Source: an uncultured Acidobacteriota bacterium (GTDB taxonomy: Bacteria; Acidobacteriota; Vicinamibacteria; Fen-336). Taken from it: 64,000 bases of DNA. The notes below the pieces were generated by a model. The model saw only the letters and a program-made list of their open reading frames with translations, had not been told where the DNA came from and ran no database searches. Position 1 is the first letter of the stretch; every line of letters begins with the position of its first letter. Position numbers and translations under genes: made by a program. Below, piece by piece: positions 18 to 20,002 of this stretch. Location of the stretch: the NCBI GenBank assembly GCA_963732935.1, contig CAVTBK010000002.1:611650-675649 (forward strand), read 5' to 3'.

Positions 18-554
18 CTAGGCTCCGCATCCGAGCACCTTGTAGAGGGTGACCCGATTGGCCCGCCCGGCCAGACGCACCGCCACCAACCCCTGCTGAG
101 CGACCTCGGTGTCTTCGTAGCGCGCCTCCGGGATGATCCCGATCGGGAAGCCGGACGCCTCCAGGAAGCGCGGCGCCTGGTCGCGTGGCTGGTGGATCGG
201 CAGCGGGTGCCCCGCCAGGACGAAACGCCAGGTCCTCCGCTCCGTGTCCAGCACACCGTAGAGCATGGTGAAGTGCTGGCCGGTGCGAACGTCGAAGGGG
301 AACTGCGGCGAGAGGCTCTCGGCCACACGCCGGTGAAGCGACCGGGGATCCATCCGGCGGACGACTGGCATGCGTGGACCGGCATCCGCAGTCGCGTCGA
401 GGAAGCGGGTGTCGAACGGCGCCGGGGGCGTGTAGGGAGTGTGGGGATTGTACGACCCGCCGCCCTCGCTCAGCCTGCGGGATGTCGAGGTACTGGATCG
501 GGAATGAGAATCCGAAGGTCGGCATTCCGACGCGCGTTTCTCCGCAGTCCGCAC
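18..554 (-). pseudogene. PP2C/SpoIIE-family phosphatase domain fragment (C-terminal half only)
   Basis: ORF 18..554. The last ~110 aa fit the SpoIIE/RsbU pattern (FTMLYGVLDT..AGHPLPI..ASGFPIGIIPEARYED). The N-terminal metal-binding part is missing and the first ~60 aa are low complexity. It abuts the distal attC at 591. Confidence 0.4.
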
Positions 555-590
555 ACCGAAACGACAACGCCATCACGCTCCCCCCTTCAG

Positions 591-725
591 GTCCGCAGAA
601 CACCGGCGATAAGCTGCGAGGCGGTGGCCGCGCCTCCCCGCCGTCGCGGCCACGCAGCGGCACCTTCTCGCATTCGTCCGGGTGCCGCTGCGAGCCTCGT
701 CAGCTTCATCGCCTTGTTCGGCGGC
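591..725 (-). repeat. integron attC site (135 bp), distal end of array A
   Basis: Plus strand runs GTCCGCAGAACACCGGCGATAAGCTGCGAGGC...GCCTCGTCAGCTTCATCGCCTTGTTCGGCGGC. The arms are imperfect inverted repeats with GTTCGG/CAGAAC cores and two unpaired bases in the right arm. The same arms occur at 1230, 15260 and 16277. Confidence 0.8.
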
Positions 726-748
726 ACCCTAGCATGGACTCAACAAGG

Positions 749-1216
749 CTATTGCTCTGCGGGTGGCGCAACTGACGCGGCGCTGTGATGCAACACCACC
801 GAGTGAGAGGAGGTGGGTGGCACTTCCGCCCGAACGGCATGTCCCGCGAAACCCTCCTTCTCGAAGGCTAGTTCGTAGACCACGCTGAAGGCATCCGGAT
901 TGGGGTGTGCTAGCGTTCCGAGGGTCGACATGAAGAAGCGGAACGTGAAATGCCCACCATCGTCTGTTGTAGCCCTAAGAGGGCTGGCTTCGGTATCGCC
1001 GCCACTGCGGCGACGCACCTCCAAGGTGACACGGCAGCCGGCTACGGGTTTGCCTGCTTCATCCAGTACCGTGCCGCCGACCGTGTGGCCCATGGTGATG
1101 TTCATGAACCCGTCGCGGCCACTGCCGCCATGTGCACAGCCGATCGCCATGACGAGAGCCGCGAAGAGCGACCCAGCCACTCCCGAATACGGGTTCCCTT
1201 GGAGGCGTTGGCCCAT
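749..1216 (-). CDS. cassette-encoded lipoprotein with carboxypeptidase-regulatory-like (CarboxypepD_reg) fold
   Basis: 155 aa. Lipobox signal ..SLFAALVMAIGC. GTVLDEAGKPVAGCRVTL..TTDDGGHFTF matches the CarboxypepD_reg pattern. Bounded by the attC sites at 591-725 and 1230-1364. Confidence 0.6.
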   Translation of the reverse strand: MGQRLQGNPYSGVAGSLFAALVMAIGCAHGGSGRDGFMNITMGHTVGGTVLDEAGKPVAGCRVTLEVRRRSGGDTEASPLRATTDDGGHFTFRFFMSTLGTLAHPNPDAFSVVYELAFEKEGFAGHAVRAEVPPTSSHSVVLHHSAASVAPPAEQ

Positions 1217-1229
1217 CCTCTACCTCGGT

Positions 1230-1364
1230 GTCCGCCGAACACCGCGGATAAGCTGCGAAGCGGTGCCCGCGTCCATTCTGCCCGCGCGGGCATGAGGCGG
1301 CGCCTCCATACGAGCCACGGTGCCGCCGAAAGCTTCGTCAGCTTCATCCGCTTGTTAGGCGGCG
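1230..1364 (-). repeat. integron attC site (135 bp)
   Basis: GTCCGCCGAACACCGCGGATAAGCTGCGAAGC...GCTTCGTCAGCTTCATCCGCTTGTTAGGCGGCGCC. Includes the classical GTTAGGC core and has the same arm family as the other three sites. Confidence 0.8.
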
Positions 1365-1367
1365 CCA

Positions 1368-1889
1368 CTACCGCGCACCTCGGCGTGTCGCTGTGTGCAC
1401 TGCTGATGTCGTGATGGCCAATCCGTCGGCCAGTGTCGTCTCGGACCGATGCTCCGCCGTGGCAAGGTGAAGCGAGTTCGACAGGATTTGGCTGTCAGCC
1501 GCAAACGACACGCCCAGCATGATGCCGTCGCGCTCGCCGCCGGCCCGCCATATGTTGCCCTCCACTTGCTGCACGCCAAGGGCATGGAACTCCCGGCCGA
1601 AGCGGCTTGCTCGAGCGTGGAACGTGAACACGAGCACCTTCTGCGGAGACTCAACCGGAACGTCGTTGGCAGACATGCTGCACGCAGGAAGCGAAATCGA
1701 ATAGATCGTTCGGCCCTGGAAGCGCACCTCGAGATCCACGACCCGATCCTGTGGACATGGCGCAAACCACTGCCAGACCCTTTGCACGCCCGACGGCGCT
1801 GGCGCGTGCGGAGGGGCCAATGCCACCCCTCTTCCCACGAGCACGACCAACGCCAGCATGCTCACGGTCATCTCGCTCGCCTCGCCCAT
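1368..1889 (-). CDS. cassette-encoded secreted hypothetical protein (first cassette of array A)
   Basis: 173 aa ORF starting 7 nt after the attI/cassette junction. Hydrophobic N-terminus (MTVSMLALVVLVG). The stop lies inside the attC. I recognise no family. Confidence 0.5.
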   Translation of the reverse strand: MGEASEMTVSMLALVVLVGRGVALAPPHAPAPSGVQRVWQWFAPCPQDRVVDLEVRFQGRTIYSISLPACSMSANDVPVESPQKVLVFTFHARASRFGREFHALGVQQVEGNIWRAGGERDGIMLGVSFAADSQILSNSLHLATAEHRSETTLADGLAITTSAVHTATRRGAR

Positions 1890-1895
1890 GAACGC

Positions 1896-2093
1896 GTCCG
1901 CCTAACACGTGATTGAACAGGTCTGTTCAACTCGGTTATCCGACGATATGCAGGTCTGTTCAACATCCCTCGTGCGCCAGAGTCTAGCTGAAGCGAAGTC
2001 CAAGCGGATACGGTAGTTGCCCGCCGGGAGATGCTGTGCGGGCAGGGGCGTTACCCGGTGTTGAACAGACCGGTTCAACTTGGCAGGGGCCAC
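1896..2093 (-). other. attI-like recombination region of integron A
   Basis: Non-coding block between the intI stop (2094) and the junction GTCCGCCTAAC (minus strand GTTAGGCGGAC). Contains palindromes TTGAACAG-GT-CTGTTCAA (1913-1930) and TTGAACAGACCGGTTCAA (2061-2078), and a direct copy of CAGGTCTGTTCAAC (1951-1964). The layout and the TCGGTTATCCGACGATATG / AGAGTCTAGC blocks are conserved at 16988-17173. Confidence 0.65.
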
Positions 2094-2669
2094 TCACAGC
2101 CGATCAGCGGGGCTTCGGACGCCACGTCCACCACGGTTGAGGACGTGCGTGTAGATCATGGTCGTGCTGACGTCGCTGTGGCCGAGAAGCTCCTGAATCG
2201 TGCGCACGTCGTACCCCTCCTCCAGGAGGTGGGTAGCGAAGGAGTGCCGCAGAGTGTGGGGCGTCGCCGGCTTGGCGATGCCGGTTCGGCGGACAGCGTC
2301 CCCCATGGCTTTCTGGATGACGGTTTCATGGAGGTGGTGGCGGTGCTGAGTGCCCGTGTGGGGGTCGAGGTAGAAGCTGGAAGCGGGAAAGACGTACTGC
2401 CACTTCCATTCGCGTGCCGCCCGCGGGTACTCGAGCCCGAGCGCCTCCGGGAGGGGGGCCTCGCCTCGCCCGTGCTCGAGGTCGTCTTGATGAGTCAGTC
2501 GGACGCGTGCGAGGTGATCGCGGAGCTCGCGGCGAAGCGAGTGTGGCAGTGGTGCGACCCGGTCCTTGGCGCCCTTTCCGCGGCGGACTGTCACCTCGTT
2601 GCGATCGAAGTCGATGTCCTTGACCCGGAGGGAGAGGCACTCCAGAAGACGCAGGCGGCGAGGCAGCAT
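2094..2669 (-). pseudogene. intI: integron integrase with in-frame internal deletion (191 aa; lacks the equivalent of residues ~5-176 of the 363-aa copy)
   Basis: Starts MLPR like the full copy, then jumps to [17 protein letters not shown] (full copy: [17 protein letters not shown]). From there it is colinear to an identical C-terminus ..[30 protein letters not shown]. 363-172=191 aa exactly. Confidence 0.85.
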
Positions 2670-2724
2670 GACGGCAAAGCTACCTCCCTCAGCGGACACC
2701 TCGGGTCCGCTCTCCCGCCACGGC

Positions 2725-3006
2725 TCAGGCGACCACGCGCAGGTCGACCTTGTGCCCCGCCCGGGCCGCAAGGGTGATCAGCATCTCGAGGTTGAACTTC
2801 TCCCACTTGCCGCGTACGAGGTCCGAGACCCGCGACTGGCCGATCCCCAGGCGCTGGGCGACTGCTGCCTGAGTGAGCTTGCTGTCGCGGATGAACTCCC
2901 GGAGATCCCCCATGAGGTCCGCTCGCATCTTGAGGACTGCCGCTTCTTCGGGAGGAAAGCCGAGTTGGAGGAAGAGATTCTCGCGGGCCTTCACCGTCTT
3001 CTTCAT
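2725..3006 (-). CDS. higA: HigA-type XRE-family HTH antitoxin
   Basis: 93 aa, [33 protein letters not shown]. Its ATG overlaps the higB stop (ATGA). Confidence 0.8.
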
Positions 3007-3313
3007 CGCAGCAACCTGTAGCGCTCCCGCGCCAAAGCCAGATCCTCCCGCCGCGTCTTGCGGCTCTTCTTCTCGAAGCAGTGCAGCACTAGACGGCGTC
3101 GGCGAAGCGCGCGACGAAAACGACCCGATGCTCGCCGAGAACGTGGATGCGGATCTCCTTGACGCCCACTCCCACGGTTGAGAGCGGCTTCCAATCGGTC
3201 GGCTCGAGACCCCGCTGCACGGCGTCGAGCTGAAAGCCCGCCTCGCGTCGCGCTTCGGCTGGGAAGCGCCGAAGGTCCGCGAGGCTGGCACCCACGAAGT
3301 GCAGATCCTTCAC
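3003..3313 (-). pseudogene. higB: HigB/RelE-family (Gp49-like) toxin with a 1-nt frameshift
   Basis: Frame 1 reads KDLHFVGASLADLRRFP..VKEIRIHVLGEHRVVFVARFADAV and stops. The next frame continues [28 protein letters not shown]. The span is 311 nt, one short of a multiple of 3 (..GCCGTCTA-GTGCTGCAC..). Confidence 0.75.
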
Positions 3314-3359
3314 CGAAGGCCATTATCTAAGAACTGCGATAGATCGGCAGGGGCCGACG

Positions 3360-4357
3360 TCACTCGGGGGGCCGCCTGCGGCGCCGGGCGCCGAGCGGGA
3401 TGCCGAGGTGATCGTTGACGGCAATGGCGATTTCCTGGTGGCTCCCGAGATAGCGCTCGGTCGTCTGGAGCGAGGCGTGGCCGAGGAGCATCTGGATCTG
3501 GTCGAGCCCGCCGCCGGCCGCCCGGCAGAGCCGCGCGCAAGTTCGCCGGAGGTCGTGCGGCGCGAGCGCTCGATCCCTGCGAGGAGGGAGTGCCGGCGGA
3601 CGATCGTCAGCACCGCCGCCCCCGTCATTTCCCCTCGGACGCGGTCGCCCTTGCCGATCGCGCGGAAGATCGAGACCCGAGGAGATACGTGCGGCGCTTC
3701 GTCCAGGAAAGGATCGCGTCCCTCACCCATCTCGGCACCGGAACCGTTCGCACGCGCCCGCCCTTTCCAGGCGATGTCCGCGAAGACGGCTCTCCCCTCT
3801 CGCTCCTGCAGGTCCTCGACCCGCAGCGCCACGAGCTCGCTTCGGCGGAGGGCGCAGCCAAGCAGGACCGCGAGGATCGCGCGGTCGCGCTTGCCGCGGA
3901 GACTCCCTGTGTAGGGGCTCGCCAGGAGCCGCCCAGCCTCCTCGGCGCCCACCCAGTTGCCGAGGCGGACGCCGTGGCGGCGAACGCCCTTGACCCTCGC
4001 GATCGCCACGGCGCGCGCCGGGTCCGGAGGCCGTTGTCGGAGGCCTCGAGGGCGAGCTTCCTGATCGGCGCCAGGCGGAGGTTGATGGTGGAGGGCGAGA
4101 AGGTAACGGCACTCGAGGTGGGCCCGGTACTCCTGAACGGACGCCCGCGTGAAGGGGCGCGGCGGGAGCCAGGCCAGGAACTCCCGAAGACCCCTCCCGT
4201 ACGCCCTGCGGGACTCGGGGCTCGTCACGGAGTCGAGGACGAGGGCGATGAGCCGCTCCCCCTCCGGGACCCCTTCCCGGGGCACCAGGCTCGCCTCCTG
4301 GGGGCCGTTTTCGGGCTCTTCCGGCATCGCCTCCATTTTACTTTCGGGAAGGAGCAT
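3360..4357 (-). pseudogene. tyrosine recombinase (phage-integrase family) with at least five frameshifts
   Basis: Recognisable pieces lie in all three frames: SPESRRAYGRGLREFLAWL..YRAHLE / FSPSTINLRLAPIRKLALEASDNGL / DPARAVAIARVKGVRRHGVRLGNW..RDRAILAVLLGCALRRSELVAL / GKGGRVRTVPVPRWVRDAILSWT / LAPHDLRRTCARLCRAAGGGLDQIQMLLGHASLQTTERYLG. Confidence 0.8.
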
Positions 4358-4409: not shown

Positions 4410-4592
4410 TTACGCTTCTTCCCAGGCCGAGCAGAGGTCGCTGCACTGGTGCGACTCTGTGGCGACCCGGTCGGCAGCGTTTCGCGCCTCGGCGGGAGTC
4501 GGGAAGGTGCCGACGATGCTCGTCGCGTTGCCGTCGATCCGGACGGCCTCGTATTGCTCCTCGTCCTCCTCCTGCGAAACCAGGAACTCCAT
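4410..4592 (-). CDS. conserved small acidic protein, copy A (60 aa)
   Basis: MEFLVSQEEDEEQYEAVRIDGNATSIVG..HQCSDLCSAWEEA. A paralog lies at 19090..19254. Differences in the first 28 codons are mostly synonymous. Confidence 0.55.
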   Translation of the reverse strand: MEFLVSQEEDEEQYEAVRIDGNATSIVGTFPTPAEARNAADRVATESHQCSDLCSAWEEA

Positions 4593-15034: not shown

Positions 15035-15259
15035 CGCTGCCTCGCCCTCACTCCGACGACCGACTGTCCTCGACACGAAGCAAACAACGGTGGCCTCCCC
15101 TTGAGTGGCTTCCGTGCGTTTCCAGCCGGTCGGCCGCCTTCAGACGATCAAAGCGCAGCTCACGACCGCAGGACGACGTCAGCACAGCCAGGCTCAGCGC
15201 TGCGACGTGTGCGTGTCCATCCCCGTTCACCGGCCGGCCAACGCGACGCCCTGCCTCAG

Positions 15260-15338
15260 GTCCGCCCAACACCGGGGATAAGCTGCGAAGCTCCGAAGTT
15301 CACCAGGCTTCGTCAGCTTCATCCCCTTGTTCGGCGGC
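15260..15338 (-). repeat. integron attC site (79 bp)
   Basis: GTCCGCCCAACACCGGGGATAAGCTGCGAAGC TCCGAAGTTCACCAG GCTTCGTCAGCTTCATCCCCTTGTTCGGCGGCC. The full structure folds as R-box, spacer, L-box with unpaired C and T in the right arm. Confidence 0.85.
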
Positions 15339-15376
15339 CTCGCAGTCCGGCCGTGACCTTCCTTTAGGGCCATCGT

Positions 15377-16258
15377 CTATTTCTTGCTCACGACCTCTGC
15401 AATGCACATGTACTCCAGCCCGTGTGTGTCGGACAGAACTCTCAATCCCTCTTGGCGCACATACTCACGGGCGCTGTTGTTGGGGAAGCCAAAGACCACA
15501 GGCTCACCCCATCGCGCATACACGTGATGTGGATTGTTTACAGCAGGATTATCCGCGCCAAAGTAGTCGAAGGCGATTCGGCTACCCGACGCGGAATGGT
15601 CCCGCACGAAGTGCAGTGTGTCCTTCACCGCCGAGTCGGGCAGATAGTAGGTGACACCTTCCCACAGAAAGAAGGTCTTCTGTTGTTCAGAGTAACCTGC
15701 GTTGCGGAGTTGTTCTAGGAGATTGTCCTTCGTGAAGTCCATCGCTACAAATGACACGTTCGATGGTATCGCTTCCGAAATTTCGCCCAACCTGCGTTTC
15801 TTGTATGCCTGCGTTGGACCATAGTCCACTTCCATGACGCGGACATCGCCAAGCTGAGCGTGAAAGCGATATGCGCGGCTATCGAAACCAGCTCCGAGCA
15901 CGACTACTTGTGTAGCGCCGTTCTGAAGGGCATCCAGCAATGCCGCATCAAACCGTTTCGTCCGGTAAGTCATCACCGCGACAGGAAGGTGTGGACCGAG
16001 TTGCTTCATGGCGCTGTCGAAATCAAGGTCTAACGCATCCATCGGAAGGTCGCGGAGCACAGCGCGTTCACGTGGCCCGAGAAGCCTGATGGCGAGATAG
16101 TCGGGATTGCGCCGCTGAGGATCAGGGTCTTTGGAGCCGATAGCTCGCGCGGCGGTTACGTAGATCGCTGTCTTAGAGGGAAGCCCGGTCTCTACCGCCC
16201 TCAATGTCCCCGCCAAGCACAGGGTGATGGTTGCGCACGCAGCGCTTTTCTTTGGCAT
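15377..16258 (-). CDS. cassette-encoded class I SAM-dependent O-methyltransferase (leucine carboxyl methyltransferase / TIGR00027-like), secreted
   Basis: 293 aa from MPKKSAACATITLCLAG (signal). AARAIGSKDPDPQRRNPDYLAIRLLGP.. and VVVLGAGFDSRAYR are typical of the family. Flanked by attC sites. Confidence 0.75.
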   Translation of the reverse strand: MPKKSAACATITLCLAGTLRAVETGLPSKTAIYVTAARAIGSKDPDPQRRNPDYLAIRLLGPRERAVLRDLPMDALDLDFDSAMKQLGPHLPVAVMTYRTKRFDAALLDALQNGATQVVVLGAGFDSRAYRFHAQLGDVRVMEVDYGPTQAYKKRRLGEISEAIPSNVSFVAMDFTKDNLLEQLRNAGYSEQQKTFFLWEGVTYYLPDSAVKDTLHFVRDHSASGSRIAFDYFGADNPAVNNPHHVYARWGEPVVFGFPNNSAREYVRQEGLRVLSDTHGLEYMCIAEVVSKK

Positions 16259-16276
16259 CGGTCCTAAGCCCTCAAG

Positions 16277-16425
16277 GTCCGCAGAACACTGGCGATAAGC
16301 TGCGAGCCGGTACCCGCGGTTTCGAACCTTCGCGGGTACGAGGCGGCGCCTCCGCCCACGCCACTTGTGCAATCCAGGCCGGGTGCCGCCGAGAGGCTCG
16401 TCAGCTTCATCGCGTTGTTCGGTGG
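16277..16425 (-). repeat. integron attC site (149 bp)
   Basis: GTCCGCAGAACACTGGCGATAAGCTGCGAGCC...GGCTCGTCAGCTTCATCGCGTTGTTCGGTGG. Lies directly after the doc stop (16438). Confidence 0.8.
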
Positions 16426-16437
16426 CCGGGCACGATC

Positions 16438-16745
16438 ACTTGCTCAGTGGCCGAACGTGCCCAGAGAGCCAGGCGACGAGCTCCGCCCGCGACTGCTTGC
16501 CTGCCGCCAAGCGGAGCCACCCGCTTGTTCCCGTCCACGAACGGGTGATTGCTGACCAGCGAGTAGGCCAGTGCGGCAGCCTTCTCGACCAGCGACGGGT
16601 ACAGGTCCTGAGCGCCGAACGCGCCGAGAGGCTGCGCGACAGCAGACTCCAGAAGCCCCAGATCGCGAAGACCCCACGGTCCGCCCGACTCTTGCATCAG
16701 CCGGTGATGAAGAGCCAGGACCTCAGCCAGGGTCAGATAGCGCAT
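16438..16745 (-). pseudogene. doc: Doc (Fic-fold) toxin with internal deletion and frameshift
   Basis: [48 protein letters not shown] is Doc-like. Right after GNKR the frame is lost. The Doc-like C-terminus [18 protein letters not shown] is in the +1 frame, and about 35 aa that normally lie between are missing. Confidence 0.7.
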
Positions 16746-16940
16746 CTACGCCAAGCGCCGGTACAGCTCCGCGTTCTTGACGAGCACCCGCGCCGTAGCT
16801 GCTTCGAAGTCCGCCGCCTGCTTGCCGGCCAGGTCCGCCAAGGCCGCCCGAGCGAGTTGCTCAAGGCCAATGCCCAGTCGATCGGCGACCTTCCGAAGCT
16901 CGCTGGCTTCCTCGTCAGGCAGTTCGACGAGAAGGTTCAT
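16746..16940 (-). CDS. Phd/RHH-type antitoxin of the doc cassette
   Basis: 64 aa. Its stop abuts the doc start (TAGATG). Its size and position match the antitoxin of Doc modules. Confidence 0.6.
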   Translation of the reverse strand: MNLLVELPDEEASELRKVADRLGIGLEQLARAALADLAGKQAADFEAATARVLVKNAELYRRLA

Positions 16941-16987
16941 GCAGCGATTCTCGCTCTGCCCGTGGCGCTCCGCAACACCTCACCAGG

Positions 16988-17173
16988 TCCACCGAACACG
17001 CGATTGAACGGGTCCGCTCAAGTCGGTTATCCGACGATATGCCGACCCGCTCAACATGACCTCCGGTGAGAGTCTAGCCGAACGGAAGACGAATCCGAGG
17101 AGGAAGTTGCTGAGAAGGCGGAGCGGGTGCTGGCCCAGATTGAACAGGTCTGTTCATCGTGGCGACCGCGCGG
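16988..17173 (-). other. attI-like recombination region of integron B
   Basis: The junction GTCCACCGAAC is followed by TTGAACGG-GT-CCGCTCAA, TCGGTTATCCGACGATATG, CCGACCCGCTCAAC, AGAGTCTAGC and TTGAACAGGTCTGTTCA just before the intI stop. Order and spacing match 1896-2093. Confidence 0.65.
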
Positions 17174-18265
17174 TCAGAGGCGATCCGCTGGACTCCGGAC
17201 GCCCCGCCCGCCGCGGTTGAGGACGTGGGTGTAGATCATGGTCGTGCTCACGTCGCTGTGGCCCAGGAGCTCTTGGATCGTCCTGACGTCGTACCCTTCT
17301 TCGAGGACGTGGGTTGCGAACGAGTGGCGAAGCGTGTGCGGTGTTGCCGGCTTGCGGATGCCCGTGCGGCGCACCGCCTCCCCCATGGCCTTTTGGATGA
17401 CGGTCTCGTGGAGGTGGTGACGGCGTTGCACGCCTGTCCGTGGATCGGGATAGAAACTGGAGGCCGGGAAGACGTACTGCCACTTCCACTCGCGGCCAGC
17501 GCGGGGGTACTTGAGGGCAAGTGCCTCCGGAAGCAGGGCCTCGCCTCGCCCGTGCTCGAGGTCGTCCTGGTGAATCCGGCGCACCTCCTCGACGTGCGCT
17601 TGAAGCCCCTTGCGAATCGACTGCGGCAGCGGCGCCACGCGGTCCTTCGCGCCTTTCCCTCGGCGCACCGTTACCTCGTTGCGCTCGAAGTCGATGTCCT
17701 TCACCCGCAGCGAGAGACCTTCGAGGAGACGGATGCCCGTACCGTAGAGCGGCCAGCAGACGAGCCGGGGTACGCCGTCCACGGCTTCGAGAAGGGTCCT
17801 CACCTCGGTCTGGGTGAGCACCACCGGAAGACGCTTCGGGGCTTTCGCGCGCTCGATCCCTTCGATGGGCCCGATATCCTTCTCGAGGACGCGGAAAAGC
17901 AGGAGGAGGGCGCAGAGCGCCTGGTTCCGGGTCGCCGCGCTGACCCTCTCGTCGATAGCCAAGTGGGAGAGGAAGCAGCGGATCTCGTCCGGGCCGATGT
18001 CGTCGACGCTTCGCCGGGCGTAGAAGGTGAGGAAGCGCCGAGCCCAGTAGAGGTAGGCCTTCTCCGTCCGGACGCTGTAGTGGGCTGTCCGGATCCCTCT
18101 TCGAAGGCACTCGAGAGCGGCATGTGGCGCTTCCCCGGCTGGTCGCTGTGGACGAGCTGCTGGCGTTGGGAAGGGGATCGCGAGGCCGGGGGGAGGCGTG
18201 AGGGCCTCGAGCGGCGTGGCGGATCGGAGGGGAAACCGGCGCAGGACTTGGGGGCGGGGCAGCAT
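17174..18265 (-). CDS. intI: integron integrase IntI (363 aa)
   Basis: Tyrosine recombinase with the IntI-specific insertion [38 protein letters not shown]. Box I is TGIRLLE. C-terminus is [25 protein letters not shown]. Confidence 0.92.
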   Translation of the reverse strand: MLPRPQVLRRFPLRSATPLEALTPPPGLAIPFPTPAARPQRPAGEAPHAALECLRRGIRTAHYSVRTEKAYLYWARRFLTFYARRSVDDIGPDEIRCFLSHLAIDERVSAATRNQALCALLLLFRVLEKDIGPIEGIERAKAPKRLPVVLTQTEVRTLLEAVDGVPRLVCWPLYGTGIRLLEGLSLRVKDIDFERNEVTVRRGKGAKDRVAPLPQSIRKGLQAHVEEVRRIHQDDLEHGRGEALLPEALALKYPRAGREWKWQYVFPASSFYPDPRTGVQRRHHLHETVIQKAMGEAVRRTGIRKPATPHTLRHSFATHVLEEGYDVRTIQELLGHSDVSTTMIYTHVLNRGGRGVRSPADRL

Positions 18266-18329
18266 GGCGGAAACTACCTCCCGGGTCGGGCGCCGCAGGT
18301 CCGTTTCCCTCGAGCGTGCCGCGGGCCTT

Positions 18330-19089
18330 GCTCCGCGTGCGTGTGGCGCGGGAAGCAGCGCCCGAGAACCTTGCCGCTCGCCACCTCGAGGGCGGCGAAG
18401 AGGCTCGTCGTACCGTGTCGCTTGTAGTCGTGCGTCATGCGCGCCGGCAAGCCCGGTCTGAGAGGGAGGATCGGCTGCGTTCGGTTCAACGCCTGGATCT
18501 GCGACTTCTCGTCCACGCAGAGCACCAGGGTCTTCTCAGGCGGGTCGAGGTAGAGCCCGACGATGTCCGCGAGCTTCTGCTCGAACGCAGGATCCTTGCT
18601 GAACTTGAAGGTCGTAGTCCGATGCGGCTGCAGGTCATATTTGCGCCAGATCCGGTGGACGGTGGACGGGCTGAGACCAACCTCCCTCGCCAAGCGACGA
18701 CAGCTCCAGTGAGTGGTCGCCTTCGGTGTCGTGAGCGTCTTGGCCACGACCGATTGCTCCTTCGCGTCACTGATGCGCCGCGGGCGGCCGGAGCGCTCCC
18801 GTGTCTTGAGTGCCGCCAGTCCCCCTTCCGAGTAGCGCTGCCGCCACTGGCAGACTGTGGCGGGCGTCACCTCCAACCGGCGTGCCGTGGCTCTCACAGC
18901 CTCACCTTGGCCGGCTGCGAGCACGATCCGCGCCCGCAGCGCCCACTGCTGCGGCATGGTGGGACATCTGAGCCACTGCTCCAGGGTCCGGCGGTGCGTT
19001 CGCGCGATCACGAACGGCGGTGCCGTAAAGGGCATACGGCATCATCTCACAAGTCTCGATCGTGTTCTATTGACTTTAGACACAGCACA
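18330..19089 (-). mobile_element. IS630-family insertion sequence remnant (transposase truncated after the first DDE aspartate)
   Basis: ORF 18274..19035. N-terminal HTH, then ..LVLCVDEKSQIQALNRTQPILPLRPG..DYKRHGTTSLFAAL typical of IS630/DDE_3. Homology ends near RCFPRHTH, so the second D, the E and the distal end are missing. Confidence 0.8.
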
Positions 19090-19254
19090 CTAGGCCTCTT
19101 CCCAGGCGGCGCAGAGGGCCCCGCATGTGTGCGCCTCTGGCGGCCACTCGGTCCACGGCTGCCATCGCCTCCCGACGATGCTCGTCTCGTTGCCGTCGAT
19201 GCGGATGGGCTCGTACTGCTCCTCGTCCTCCTCTTGCGAGACCAGAAACTCCAT
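19090..19254 (-). CDS. conserved small acidic protein, copy B (54 aa; central part out of frame relative to copy A)
   Basis: MEFLVSQEEDEEQYEPIRIDGNETSIVG..TCGALCAAWEEA. Its middle matches copy A only in another frame (EAMAAVDRVAARGAH versus EARNAADRVATESHQ). Confidence 0.45.
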   Translation of the reverse strand: MEFLVSQEEDEEQYEPIRIDGNETSIVGRRWQPWTEWPPEAHTCGALCAAWEEA

Positions 19255-19257
19255 GAC

Positions 19258-20002
19258 CCGTGCGCGCGACGCTCGAGCGGAAGAGCGGCGAGTCACGCTC
19301 GCGGGCGATCCCGGCCGCCTCGACGTAGGCGTCGAGGTAGTCCCCCGCCCGGTGATGGACGGGCACCTGGTGGTACTTCCCGCCCTTCTCGTGCAGACGA
19401 AACCAGGATCTCTTCCCCTGGGTGTAGTAGTCCTTGACGTCCATCTTCACGACGGCACCCACGCGCGCGAAGGAGTAGGTCATCACCGCCAGGAACGCCC
19501 GATCACGGAGGCCGACGACCCCGGAGACGTCGATCGAGTCGAAGAGATCCCGTGTCTCCTCCTCCGAGAGGACCGGCGTCTTCCCCACCTCGACGACGTG
19601 CTTCGGTCCCCGGACGGAAGACGCCGGGTTATGCGGAAGGACACCGCCCGTCACGAGGTAATCGAAGAGCCGCCGGATCGCGGCGAGGTGCTGTTTCACC
19701 GAGGGGGCCGCGAGCTCCTTCTGCAGCTCCTCAATGTAAGCCGCGACGAGCACGGGCTCGATCTTTTCGAGCGGGAGGCCGTGCGTCTCGCACCAGGCCG
19801 TGAAGCGCGCGACGGCGAAGCCGTAGGCCCGGCGCGTCTTCTCATTCCGGATCTGCGCCGTGAAGAACTCGAGAAACCGCCGCGAGGCCCGCTCCCCCGC
19901 CCGCGTCACGAGCGCCGGGAGCGCCACGCCTCGCGGAAGGGTCACGTCCCCTGAGCCGATCCTCACGAGGCCTTCGCCCTCGGCCACCCTCGCCTCCCCC
20001 AT
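19258..20002 (-). pseudogene. tyrosine recombinase, N-terminal ~248 aa only (3' part deleted)
   Basis: ..RRFLEFFTAQIRNEKTRRAYGFAVARFTAWCE..SVKQHLAAIRRLFDYLV..GLRDRAFLAVMTYSFARVGAVV..LHEKGGKYHQVPVHH..PLFRS. The sequence then runs straight into the small ORF start. The catalytic HxxR/Y region is absent. Confidence 0.75.

Follow-up and report, generated by a model that had tools for sequence, protein, structure and literature searches.

What becomes of an integron whose integrase gene has lost its front half, and can its cassettes still be moved? This question is raised by a 64,000-nucleotide stretch of the genome of an uncultured Acidobacteriota bacterium of the Vicinamibacteria, from soil or sediment (GenBank assembly GCA_963732935.1, contig CAVTBK010000002.1, positions 611,650 to 675,649; hereafter the window), which carries two integrons of one subfamily. 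Locus A holds a truncated integron integrase gene (intI, copy A) together with a short cassette array, and locus B holds an intact intI (copy B) with an array of its own. We consider it highly probable that locus A (584-2709) is a real, decaying chromosomal integron of inverted layout, whose intI lost ~516 bp by an in-frame illegitimate deletion and whose product is most likely inactive. The features of the two integrase genes on which the argument turns are listed here in window coordinates.

2094..2669, minus strand: truncated integron integrase gene (delta-intI, copy A), 191 codons; open reading frame (ORF), BLASTP, Pfam and TIGR02249
2654..2656, minus strand: deletion junction with the 3-nucleotide (nt) microhomology GCC; from relatives' contigs of runs X2, X3 and X4
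2670..2709, minus strand: native intI leader of copy A with Shine-Dalgarno-like GGAGGT; conserved with copy B and the metagenomic relative P0002 (blastn, three-way leader comparison)
17174..18265, minus strand: intact integron integrase gene (intI, copy B), 363 amino acids (aa), starting MLPRPQVLRR; TIGR02249, PF13495 and PF00589

Copy B is an integron integrase by every comparison made: it scores 418 bits against TIGR02249 (cut-off 265) over profile positions 2-315, aligns to residues 8-320 of Vibrio cholerae IntIA (VchIntIA, structure 2A3V) with an E value of 3e-78, and has thousands of homologues named integron integrase by their sources. When the two products were aligned by BLASTP, residues 6-191 of copy A matched residues 178-363 of copy B without a gap, with 161 of the 186 residues identical (E 5e-118). 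At the nucleotide level, blastn of locus A against locus B returned two separate matches, the first joining 1896-2651 to 16987-17731 at 76% (the 3' half of intI and ~200 nt downstream, including the attachment site attI) and the second joining 2654-2709 to 18250-18303 at 75% over 56 nt (the first codons and the leader). Copy A matches the start of the intact 363-aa gene over its initial 4-5 codons and some 40-55 nt of leader, and the leader and start sequence GAGGTAG..ATGCTGCC.CG is also common to P0002 (contig L081), a third, full-length relative that starts with MLPRR. MLPR is evidently the native start of this IntI subfamily.

Beyond its start, copy A resumes ~2 residues ahead of the catalytic Arg (RLRLLE in copy A, GIRLLE in copy B, GLRLME in VchIntIA), which corresponds to about residue 133 of VchIntIA through the alignment of copy B to 2A3V. 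It retains the catalytic Arg (R7), GKGAKDR, HxxR, H and Y, such that the full R-K-H-R-H-Y set of catalytic residues is still present, and the IntI-specific insertion is found in both copies. The alignments uphold what the initial annotation had proposed from the letters alone, namely a second integron of the same subfamily ~15 kb away (the two intI starts lie 15,080 bp apart), a 191-aa ORF at 2094-2669 that keeps the native MLPR start, ~50 bp of leader conserved with copy B, a jump to the box I region followed by colinearity with the 363-aa copy, and a deletion of 172 codons (363 minus 191, relative to copy B). That figure of 172 codons (~516 bp) is measured against copy B and P0002, both of 363 aa, and may differ by a few codons from the loss relative to the true ancestor, as relatives are not of equal length over the first 20 residues.

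The closest relatives of copy A lack the deletion. In a scan of the genome collection with IntI-B, relatives among the matches listed did not exceed 60% identity, and a metagenome scan with copy A gave relatives of at most 70%, with L081 the sole ortholog-bearing locus obtained with its flanks. Nearer sequences came as short Logan contigs from X2 (bioreactor), X3 (no organism label) and X4 (sediment), three metagenomes unrelated to one another. Contigs from all three are ~94% identical to copy A over 2296-2656, diverge from it at 2656 and then read ...LVCWLLYGTG, as in a normal integrase just upstream of box I. A separate X2 contig matches 2654-2746 and then continues CG TGG CCC ACG GGG TCC GTG ACA CCA CTC, which encodes MLPRRPWPTGSVTPL and resembles the N-terminus of P0002 (MLPRREAPRRWPPGSGTPLE) and that of copy B. 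Since the nearest relatives continue into normal integrase on both sides of the junction, the deletion is specific to the lineage of copy A. The 5' flank (ATG CTG CCT CGC CGC C/CG TGG in the relatives) and the 3' flank (ACG G/GC CTG CGT), written here with a slash at the break, have the triplet GCC in common; because they overlap by this triplet only, the junction points to loss by illegitimate, microhomology-level deletion. An IntI-mediated origin of the deletion was also considered and rejected, as neither flank has a GTT core. We propose that ~516 bp (about 170 codons) were lost, by chance in frame, through an illegitimate deletion between two GCC triplets. The first five codons, with the leader and ribosome-binding site retained ahead of them, would thereby have been joined to the codon preceding the catalytic arginine.

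The deletion took away the front 47% of the integrase gene, and with it the entire SAM-like domain at the N-terminus, the linker and the two opening helices of the catalytic domain. PF13495, the N-terminal SAM-like core-binding domain, found no match in copy A, as against 5e-21 in copy B; PF00589 spans only profile positions 36-169 of 172, with positions 1-35 gone; and the TIGR02249 match (282.8 bits) covers profile positions 130-315, with 129 of the 315 positions gone. Copy A is thus without two features expected of a functional IntI, the PF13495 core-binding domain and a complete PF00589 catalytic domain. The absence of the core-binding domain had been recognized at the outset, but the damage was understated, as ~35 catalytic-domain profile positions were lost with it. 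Judged from the known architecture of the tyrosine recombinase family (2A3V; PMC2727003), a member with no core-binding domain and a clipped catalytic domain is very unlikely to bind attC or attI and to support synapsis. Without its DNA-clamping N-terminal domain and first catalytic helices, the 191-aa product would most likely be an inactive remnant, leaving array A as an orphaned two-cassette array no longer mobile by its own integrase.

We compared the coding sequences over the 186 shared codons, where copies A and B are 78.8% identical in nucleotides and 86.6% in amino acids, with 1.25 synonymous substitutions per site (dS), 0.084 non-synonymous substitutions per site (dN) and a dN/dS of 0.07. 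This agrees with the similarity of about 80% and the many synonymous changes that had been judged by eye. Given a dS of ~1.25, the two genes are evidently old, diverged relatives and not a recent duplicate. That much of the earlier description of "diverged paralogs rather than a recent duplication" holds, but paralogy does not follow from it: copy A is nearer to P0002 (82.7% nt) than to copy B (78.8% nt), and although A, B and P0002 form one clade in 190 of 200 bootstraps, the branching order inside that clade is ambiguous, and a duplication in this lineage and two separate acquisitions cannot be told apart.

Several observations weigh against our reading of copy A as a gene that has truly lost its front half and its activity. 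The junction at 2640-2680 is known from the assembly alone. The catalytic residues and translation signals are all intact, so expression of the protein is possible, and the C-terminal 186 codons run without a stop or frameshift. On the copy A branch, dN/dS is about 0.06-0.07, as for a constrained gene. When differences to X2, X3 and X4 were polarized with B and P0002, the A-specific changes since the 94% relatives came to ~3 non-synonymous ones (K80E and A78G among them) and a few synonymous ones, too few to show relaxed selection. The low dN/dS shows constraint for most of the history of the gene, which a recent deletion would fit equally well, and the few A-specific changes are likewise consistent with a recent deletion and with continued constraint.

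The first of these observations leaves room for an assembly artefact, or for a deletion confined to a sub-population, in an organism that really has two full-length intI genes. Two run searches returned relatives only (best word share 0.16 and 0.08) and no sequencing run with this genome that could be laid across 2640-2680, and the close relatives X2, X3 and X4 are all undeleted. However, flanks with 3 nt in common offer far too little for a k-mer or repeat collapse, and cross-assembly between A and B is unlikely with copy B only 79% identical. The assembled contig is 768 kb long, and long nearby genes are intact; with uvrA (2.9 kb) and a resistance-nodulation-division (RND) pump gene (3 kb) both undamaged and of normal length, a generally error-ridden assembly is also unlikely. 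We regard an artefact as improbable.

The intact leader, Shine-Dalgarno-like site, ATG and open frame, together with the retained catalytic residues and IntI-specific insertion, the low dN/dS on the A branch and a TIGR02249 score still above the cut-off, would also suit a catalytic-core protein of 191 aa that is made and kept for a function, for example joining or poisoning IntI-B tetramers or binding attC or attI as a regulator. Such a protein would have to work with ~35 catalytic-domain profile positions and the entire core-binding domain gone, and the low dN/dS comes mostly from the time before the deletion. Moreover, the nearest relatives are full length, the chance of a deletion falling in frame is 1 in 3, open frames persist long in DNA of 71% GC, the surroundings of copy A are decaying, and the other short intI genes that we looked at, located next to unrelated genes, are either simply truncated at the 5' end or split. 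A retained function is accordingly a distinctly unlikely account of copy A. Its most specific form, in which the protein is expressed from the intact leader and modulates IntI-B, for instance by damping cassette shuffling in the role of a dominant-negative subunit, we would put as slightly less likely again; if true, the 191-aa protein would be a natural "half-integrase" regulator. That copy A is a chimera of two integron copies, with its 5' leader from one and its 3' half from the other, is very unlikely, for although there are three related lineages (A, B and P0002) of ambiguous branching and the leader and body are matched by separate X2 contigs and not by one, both X2 contigs are ~89-94% identical to A, as against 75-83% for B/P0002, which fits a single A-type parent, and the window holds no second A-type fragment.

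A decaying, truncated intI also has parallels elsewhere. Many database entries of 180-216 aa named "integron integrase" consist of the C-terminal domain only. We examined three short intI genes on long contigs: in L082 (4001-4651) and L084 (4001-4588) the intI remnant adjoins an unrelated chromosomal gene and its N-terminal coding DNA is gone, and in L085 (3783-4642) intI is split in two. The unrelated genes next to such metagenomic remnants include a histidine kinase and a TonB-dependent receptor. 5'-truncated intI appears to be common elsewhere, and copy A is another such remnant, special only for an internal deletion that preserves both the frame and the start. In class 2 integrons, IntI2 is cut short by a premature stop at codon 179, leaving an array that stays static without a trans-acting integrase from elsewhere. 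IntI2 retains the N-terminal part and loses the C-terminal catalytic part, whereas copy A shows the reverse.

Whether array A could still be mobilized depends on its recombination sites, which are listed here with the cassettes of both arrays; the attI assignments are predictions.

1896..2093, minus strand: attI-A region, downstream of the intI stop codon; repeat family (83% to 16987-17057), motif scan and three-way alignment
2061-2078 and 1913-1930, with a half copy at 1946-1963, minus strand: attI-A palindromes TTGAAC-N6-GTTCAA; motif scan
1979-1989, minus strand: conserved AGCTAGACTCT of attI-A; three-way alignment with attI-B and L081
1906-1900, minus strand: attI-A core GTTAGGC, at which cassette 1 starts
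1364..1895, minus strand: cassette A1, with an ORF (1368-1889) of 173 aa and no family match
1223..1363, minus strand: attC of cassette A1, ~141 nt; R'' GCCTAAC, R' GTTCGGC, variable part a three-way junction
726..1222, minus strand: cassette A2, with an ORF (749-1216) of 155 aa and a weak CarboxypepD_reg-like domain
584..725, minus strand: attC of cassette A2, the last of array A in the window; repeat, fold and motif scan
16987..17173, minus strand: attI-B region; blastn and three-way alignment
15253..16986, minus strand: array B, two cassettes with one ORF or toxin-antitoxin pair per unit
16746-16940 and 16407-16745, minus strand: cassette B1, an antitoxin-like ORF and a Fic/Doc toxin, with attC at 16270-16426
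15377-about 16258, minus strand: cassette B2, an LCM-type methyltransferase, with attC at 15253-15338

Closer inspection of the DNA 3' of the intI stop revealed a block of ~190 nt that is shared by A, B and L081, contains the palindromes and an invariant GCTAGACTCT, and ends in GTGTTAGGC (GTTRRRY). As this conserved block ends 16 nt before the first cassette ORF, we predict that it is attI. The palindrome TTGAAC-N6-GTTCAA stands directly after the intI stop and again beside the attI core (17140-17157 and 17004-17021 in locus B), and the same palindromes occur in L081 at about 1915-1935 and 2060-2080 with the invariant GCTAGACTCT between them; in this attI type, these elements may serve for integrase binding or as a promoter. 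Among 165 related loci the A/B-type attI block was found in L081 only, which suggests that the attI type is specific to this small subfamily. A scan of both loci for a sigma-70 consensus promoter (Pc) and a terminator gave no match, and that the invariant GCTAGACTCT of all three attI regions holds a -10 element would be a guess. A shortened Pc spacer in copy A was entertained and dropped after the three-way attI alignment.

Four attC sites, the only ones in the 64 kb and all on the minus strand, have near-identical arms (R'' GCCKAAC, R' GTTSKGC), those of array A differing from those of array B at 0-2 of 21-22 bases. Each forms a long bulged hairpin, with folding energies between -54 and -93 kcal/mol; in the plus-strand fold, two extra-helical bases sit on the 3' arm, which indicates that plus is the recombining bottom strand and minus the cassette coding strand. 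Three of the sites are long (141-157 nt: 584-725, 1223-1363 and 16270-16426), with a three-way junction as their variable part, and 15253-15338 has the same arms in only 86 nt. Rfam returned no known RNAs within the window. On the minus strand, both loci read intI, attI, cassette, attC, cassette, attC, and with an IntI-type recombinase, a predicted attI and attC sites, both are recognizable as integrons.

The structure of attC is what integrases recognize, and attC sites are recombined by non-cognate integrases, while attI is recognized by the cognate enzyme only (PMC2095811). As arrays A and B share a single attC type and non-cognate IntI recombine attC, the intact IntI-B, 15 kb off, could still excise the cassettes of array A. 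It is a reasonable inference that array A is frozen unless IntI-B acts in trans. Insertion by IntI-B at attI-A is less certain, as attI-A is only ~83% identical to attI-B in the core block.

With respect to cassette content, the toxin-antitoxin pair of cassette B1 recalls reported toxin-antitoxin cassettes that stabilize chromosomal integrons. Beyond the last attC of array A, an ORF at 18-554 (minus strand) matches only the middle of a SpoIIE/PP2C profile (positions 36-118 of 192) and is possibly a broken gene that borders the array. Because the window stops at this SpoIIE-like ORF, more of array A could lie beyond it. The IntI subfamily itself carries an N-terminal extension of ~50 aa (MLPR...TPLEALTPPPGL...; copy B residues 1-52; P0002 at L081 812-1903) that is missing from VchIntIA and is conserved at the protein level between copy B and P0002.

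The genes around copy A show further damage. Directly upstream of the truncated intI lies a higB/higA-like pair, a Gp49 toxin at 3089-3313 and an HTH_37 antitoxin at 2725-3021 (both minus strand). The higB gene ends early by a -1 frameshift at ~3089 and goes on in another frame (LVLHCFEKKSRKTRRE...); a 96%-identical contig of run X1 has an extra G at the break, and its downstream context differs. The Xer-like tyrosine recombinase gene at 3323-4357 (minus strand) has at least three frame changes (near 3770, 3690 and 3565) and looks like a pseudogene. Between the integrons lie ordinary chromosomal genes, including a PAP2 protein, a two-component system, an RND efflux operon and a beta-propeller protein. 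UvrA is 83-88% identical to proteins labelled Vicinamibacteria at NCBI, with unlabelled best matches of up to 93%, which places the host in that class.

Upstream of copy B, an IS630-type transposase fragment (18274-19035, minus strand) with helix-turn-helix domains only and no DDE part abuts the intI-B leader. Upstream of this fragment lies another Xer-like recombinase (19297-20002, minus strand), represented by its 5' two-thirds and cut off by a segment with a small ORF. This small ORF of ~60 aa (MEFLVSQEEDEEQYE.VRIDGN.TSIVG...C..LC.AWEEA) stands upstream of both integrons, at 4410-4592 and 19090-19257 (both minus strand), and the DNA similarity runs from ATG to stop, reaching 90% over the first 86 nt, above that of intI itself; the B copy has a 19-nt gap and a 1-nt insertion. 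Neither Pfam nor NCBIfam matches the small ORF, and in L081 the DNA upstream of intI lacks it.

The arrangement at locus A can be set against several known systems. Of the genomes that bear integrons, about 20% have more than one intI (Cury et al. 2016, PMC4889954), and intI pseudogenes beside attC clusters have been described, with intI loss in one of several integrons an expected scenario (PMC4889954). CALIN elements (degenerate integrons), known from the same study, are taken here as two or more attC sites that lack a working intI close by and may have an intI pseudogene up to 10 kb away. Locus A, with two attC sites (584-725 and 1223-1363) beside a remnant bearing the IntI C-terminal signature, resembles a CALIN with an intI pseudogene, provided that the remnant is non-functional as we propose; it differs in that the remnant is still an open frame with attI and translation signals intact, and has only two attC sites.

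In Xanthomonas, most intI genes are inactivated by a frameshift, a stop or a large deletion and the arrays are stable (10.1101/2025.06.18.660453), an inactivation that a passage of this source attributes to Gillings et al. 2005. Locus A is similarly a sedentary chromosomal integron with a disabled intI and a short, stable array. Unlike the Xanthomonas integrons, it lies in a member of the Vicinamibacteria, has an inverted layout and an internal in-frame deletion with the start kept, and has an intact integron 15 kb away. In the inverted integron-integrase group (Treponema denticola type), intI is co-directional with the cassettes and attI lies beyond the 3' end of intI (PMC4889954). Both loci have this layout, with intI, attI, cassette ORFs and attC top strands all on the minus strand; they differ from the Treponema denticola type in phylum and IntI subfamily and in the ~50-aa N-terminal extension (MLPR...TPLEALTPPPGL).

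Locus A represents integron decay at an ordinary stage, new in its host but not in kind, and it does not change what is known about integrons. It does carry a warning for annotation: with a TIGR02249 score above the cut-off and an uninterrupted frame that begins at its own start codon, the remnant would probably be counted by pipelines as a second functional integron. What the window offers is a live integron and a decaying one, alike in subfamily and attC type, in a little-studied phylum (Acidobacteriota, Vicinamibacteria), and with them a natural example of how cassette arrays come to be fixed and of the way in which an intact integrase in the same genome might reach an orphaned array.

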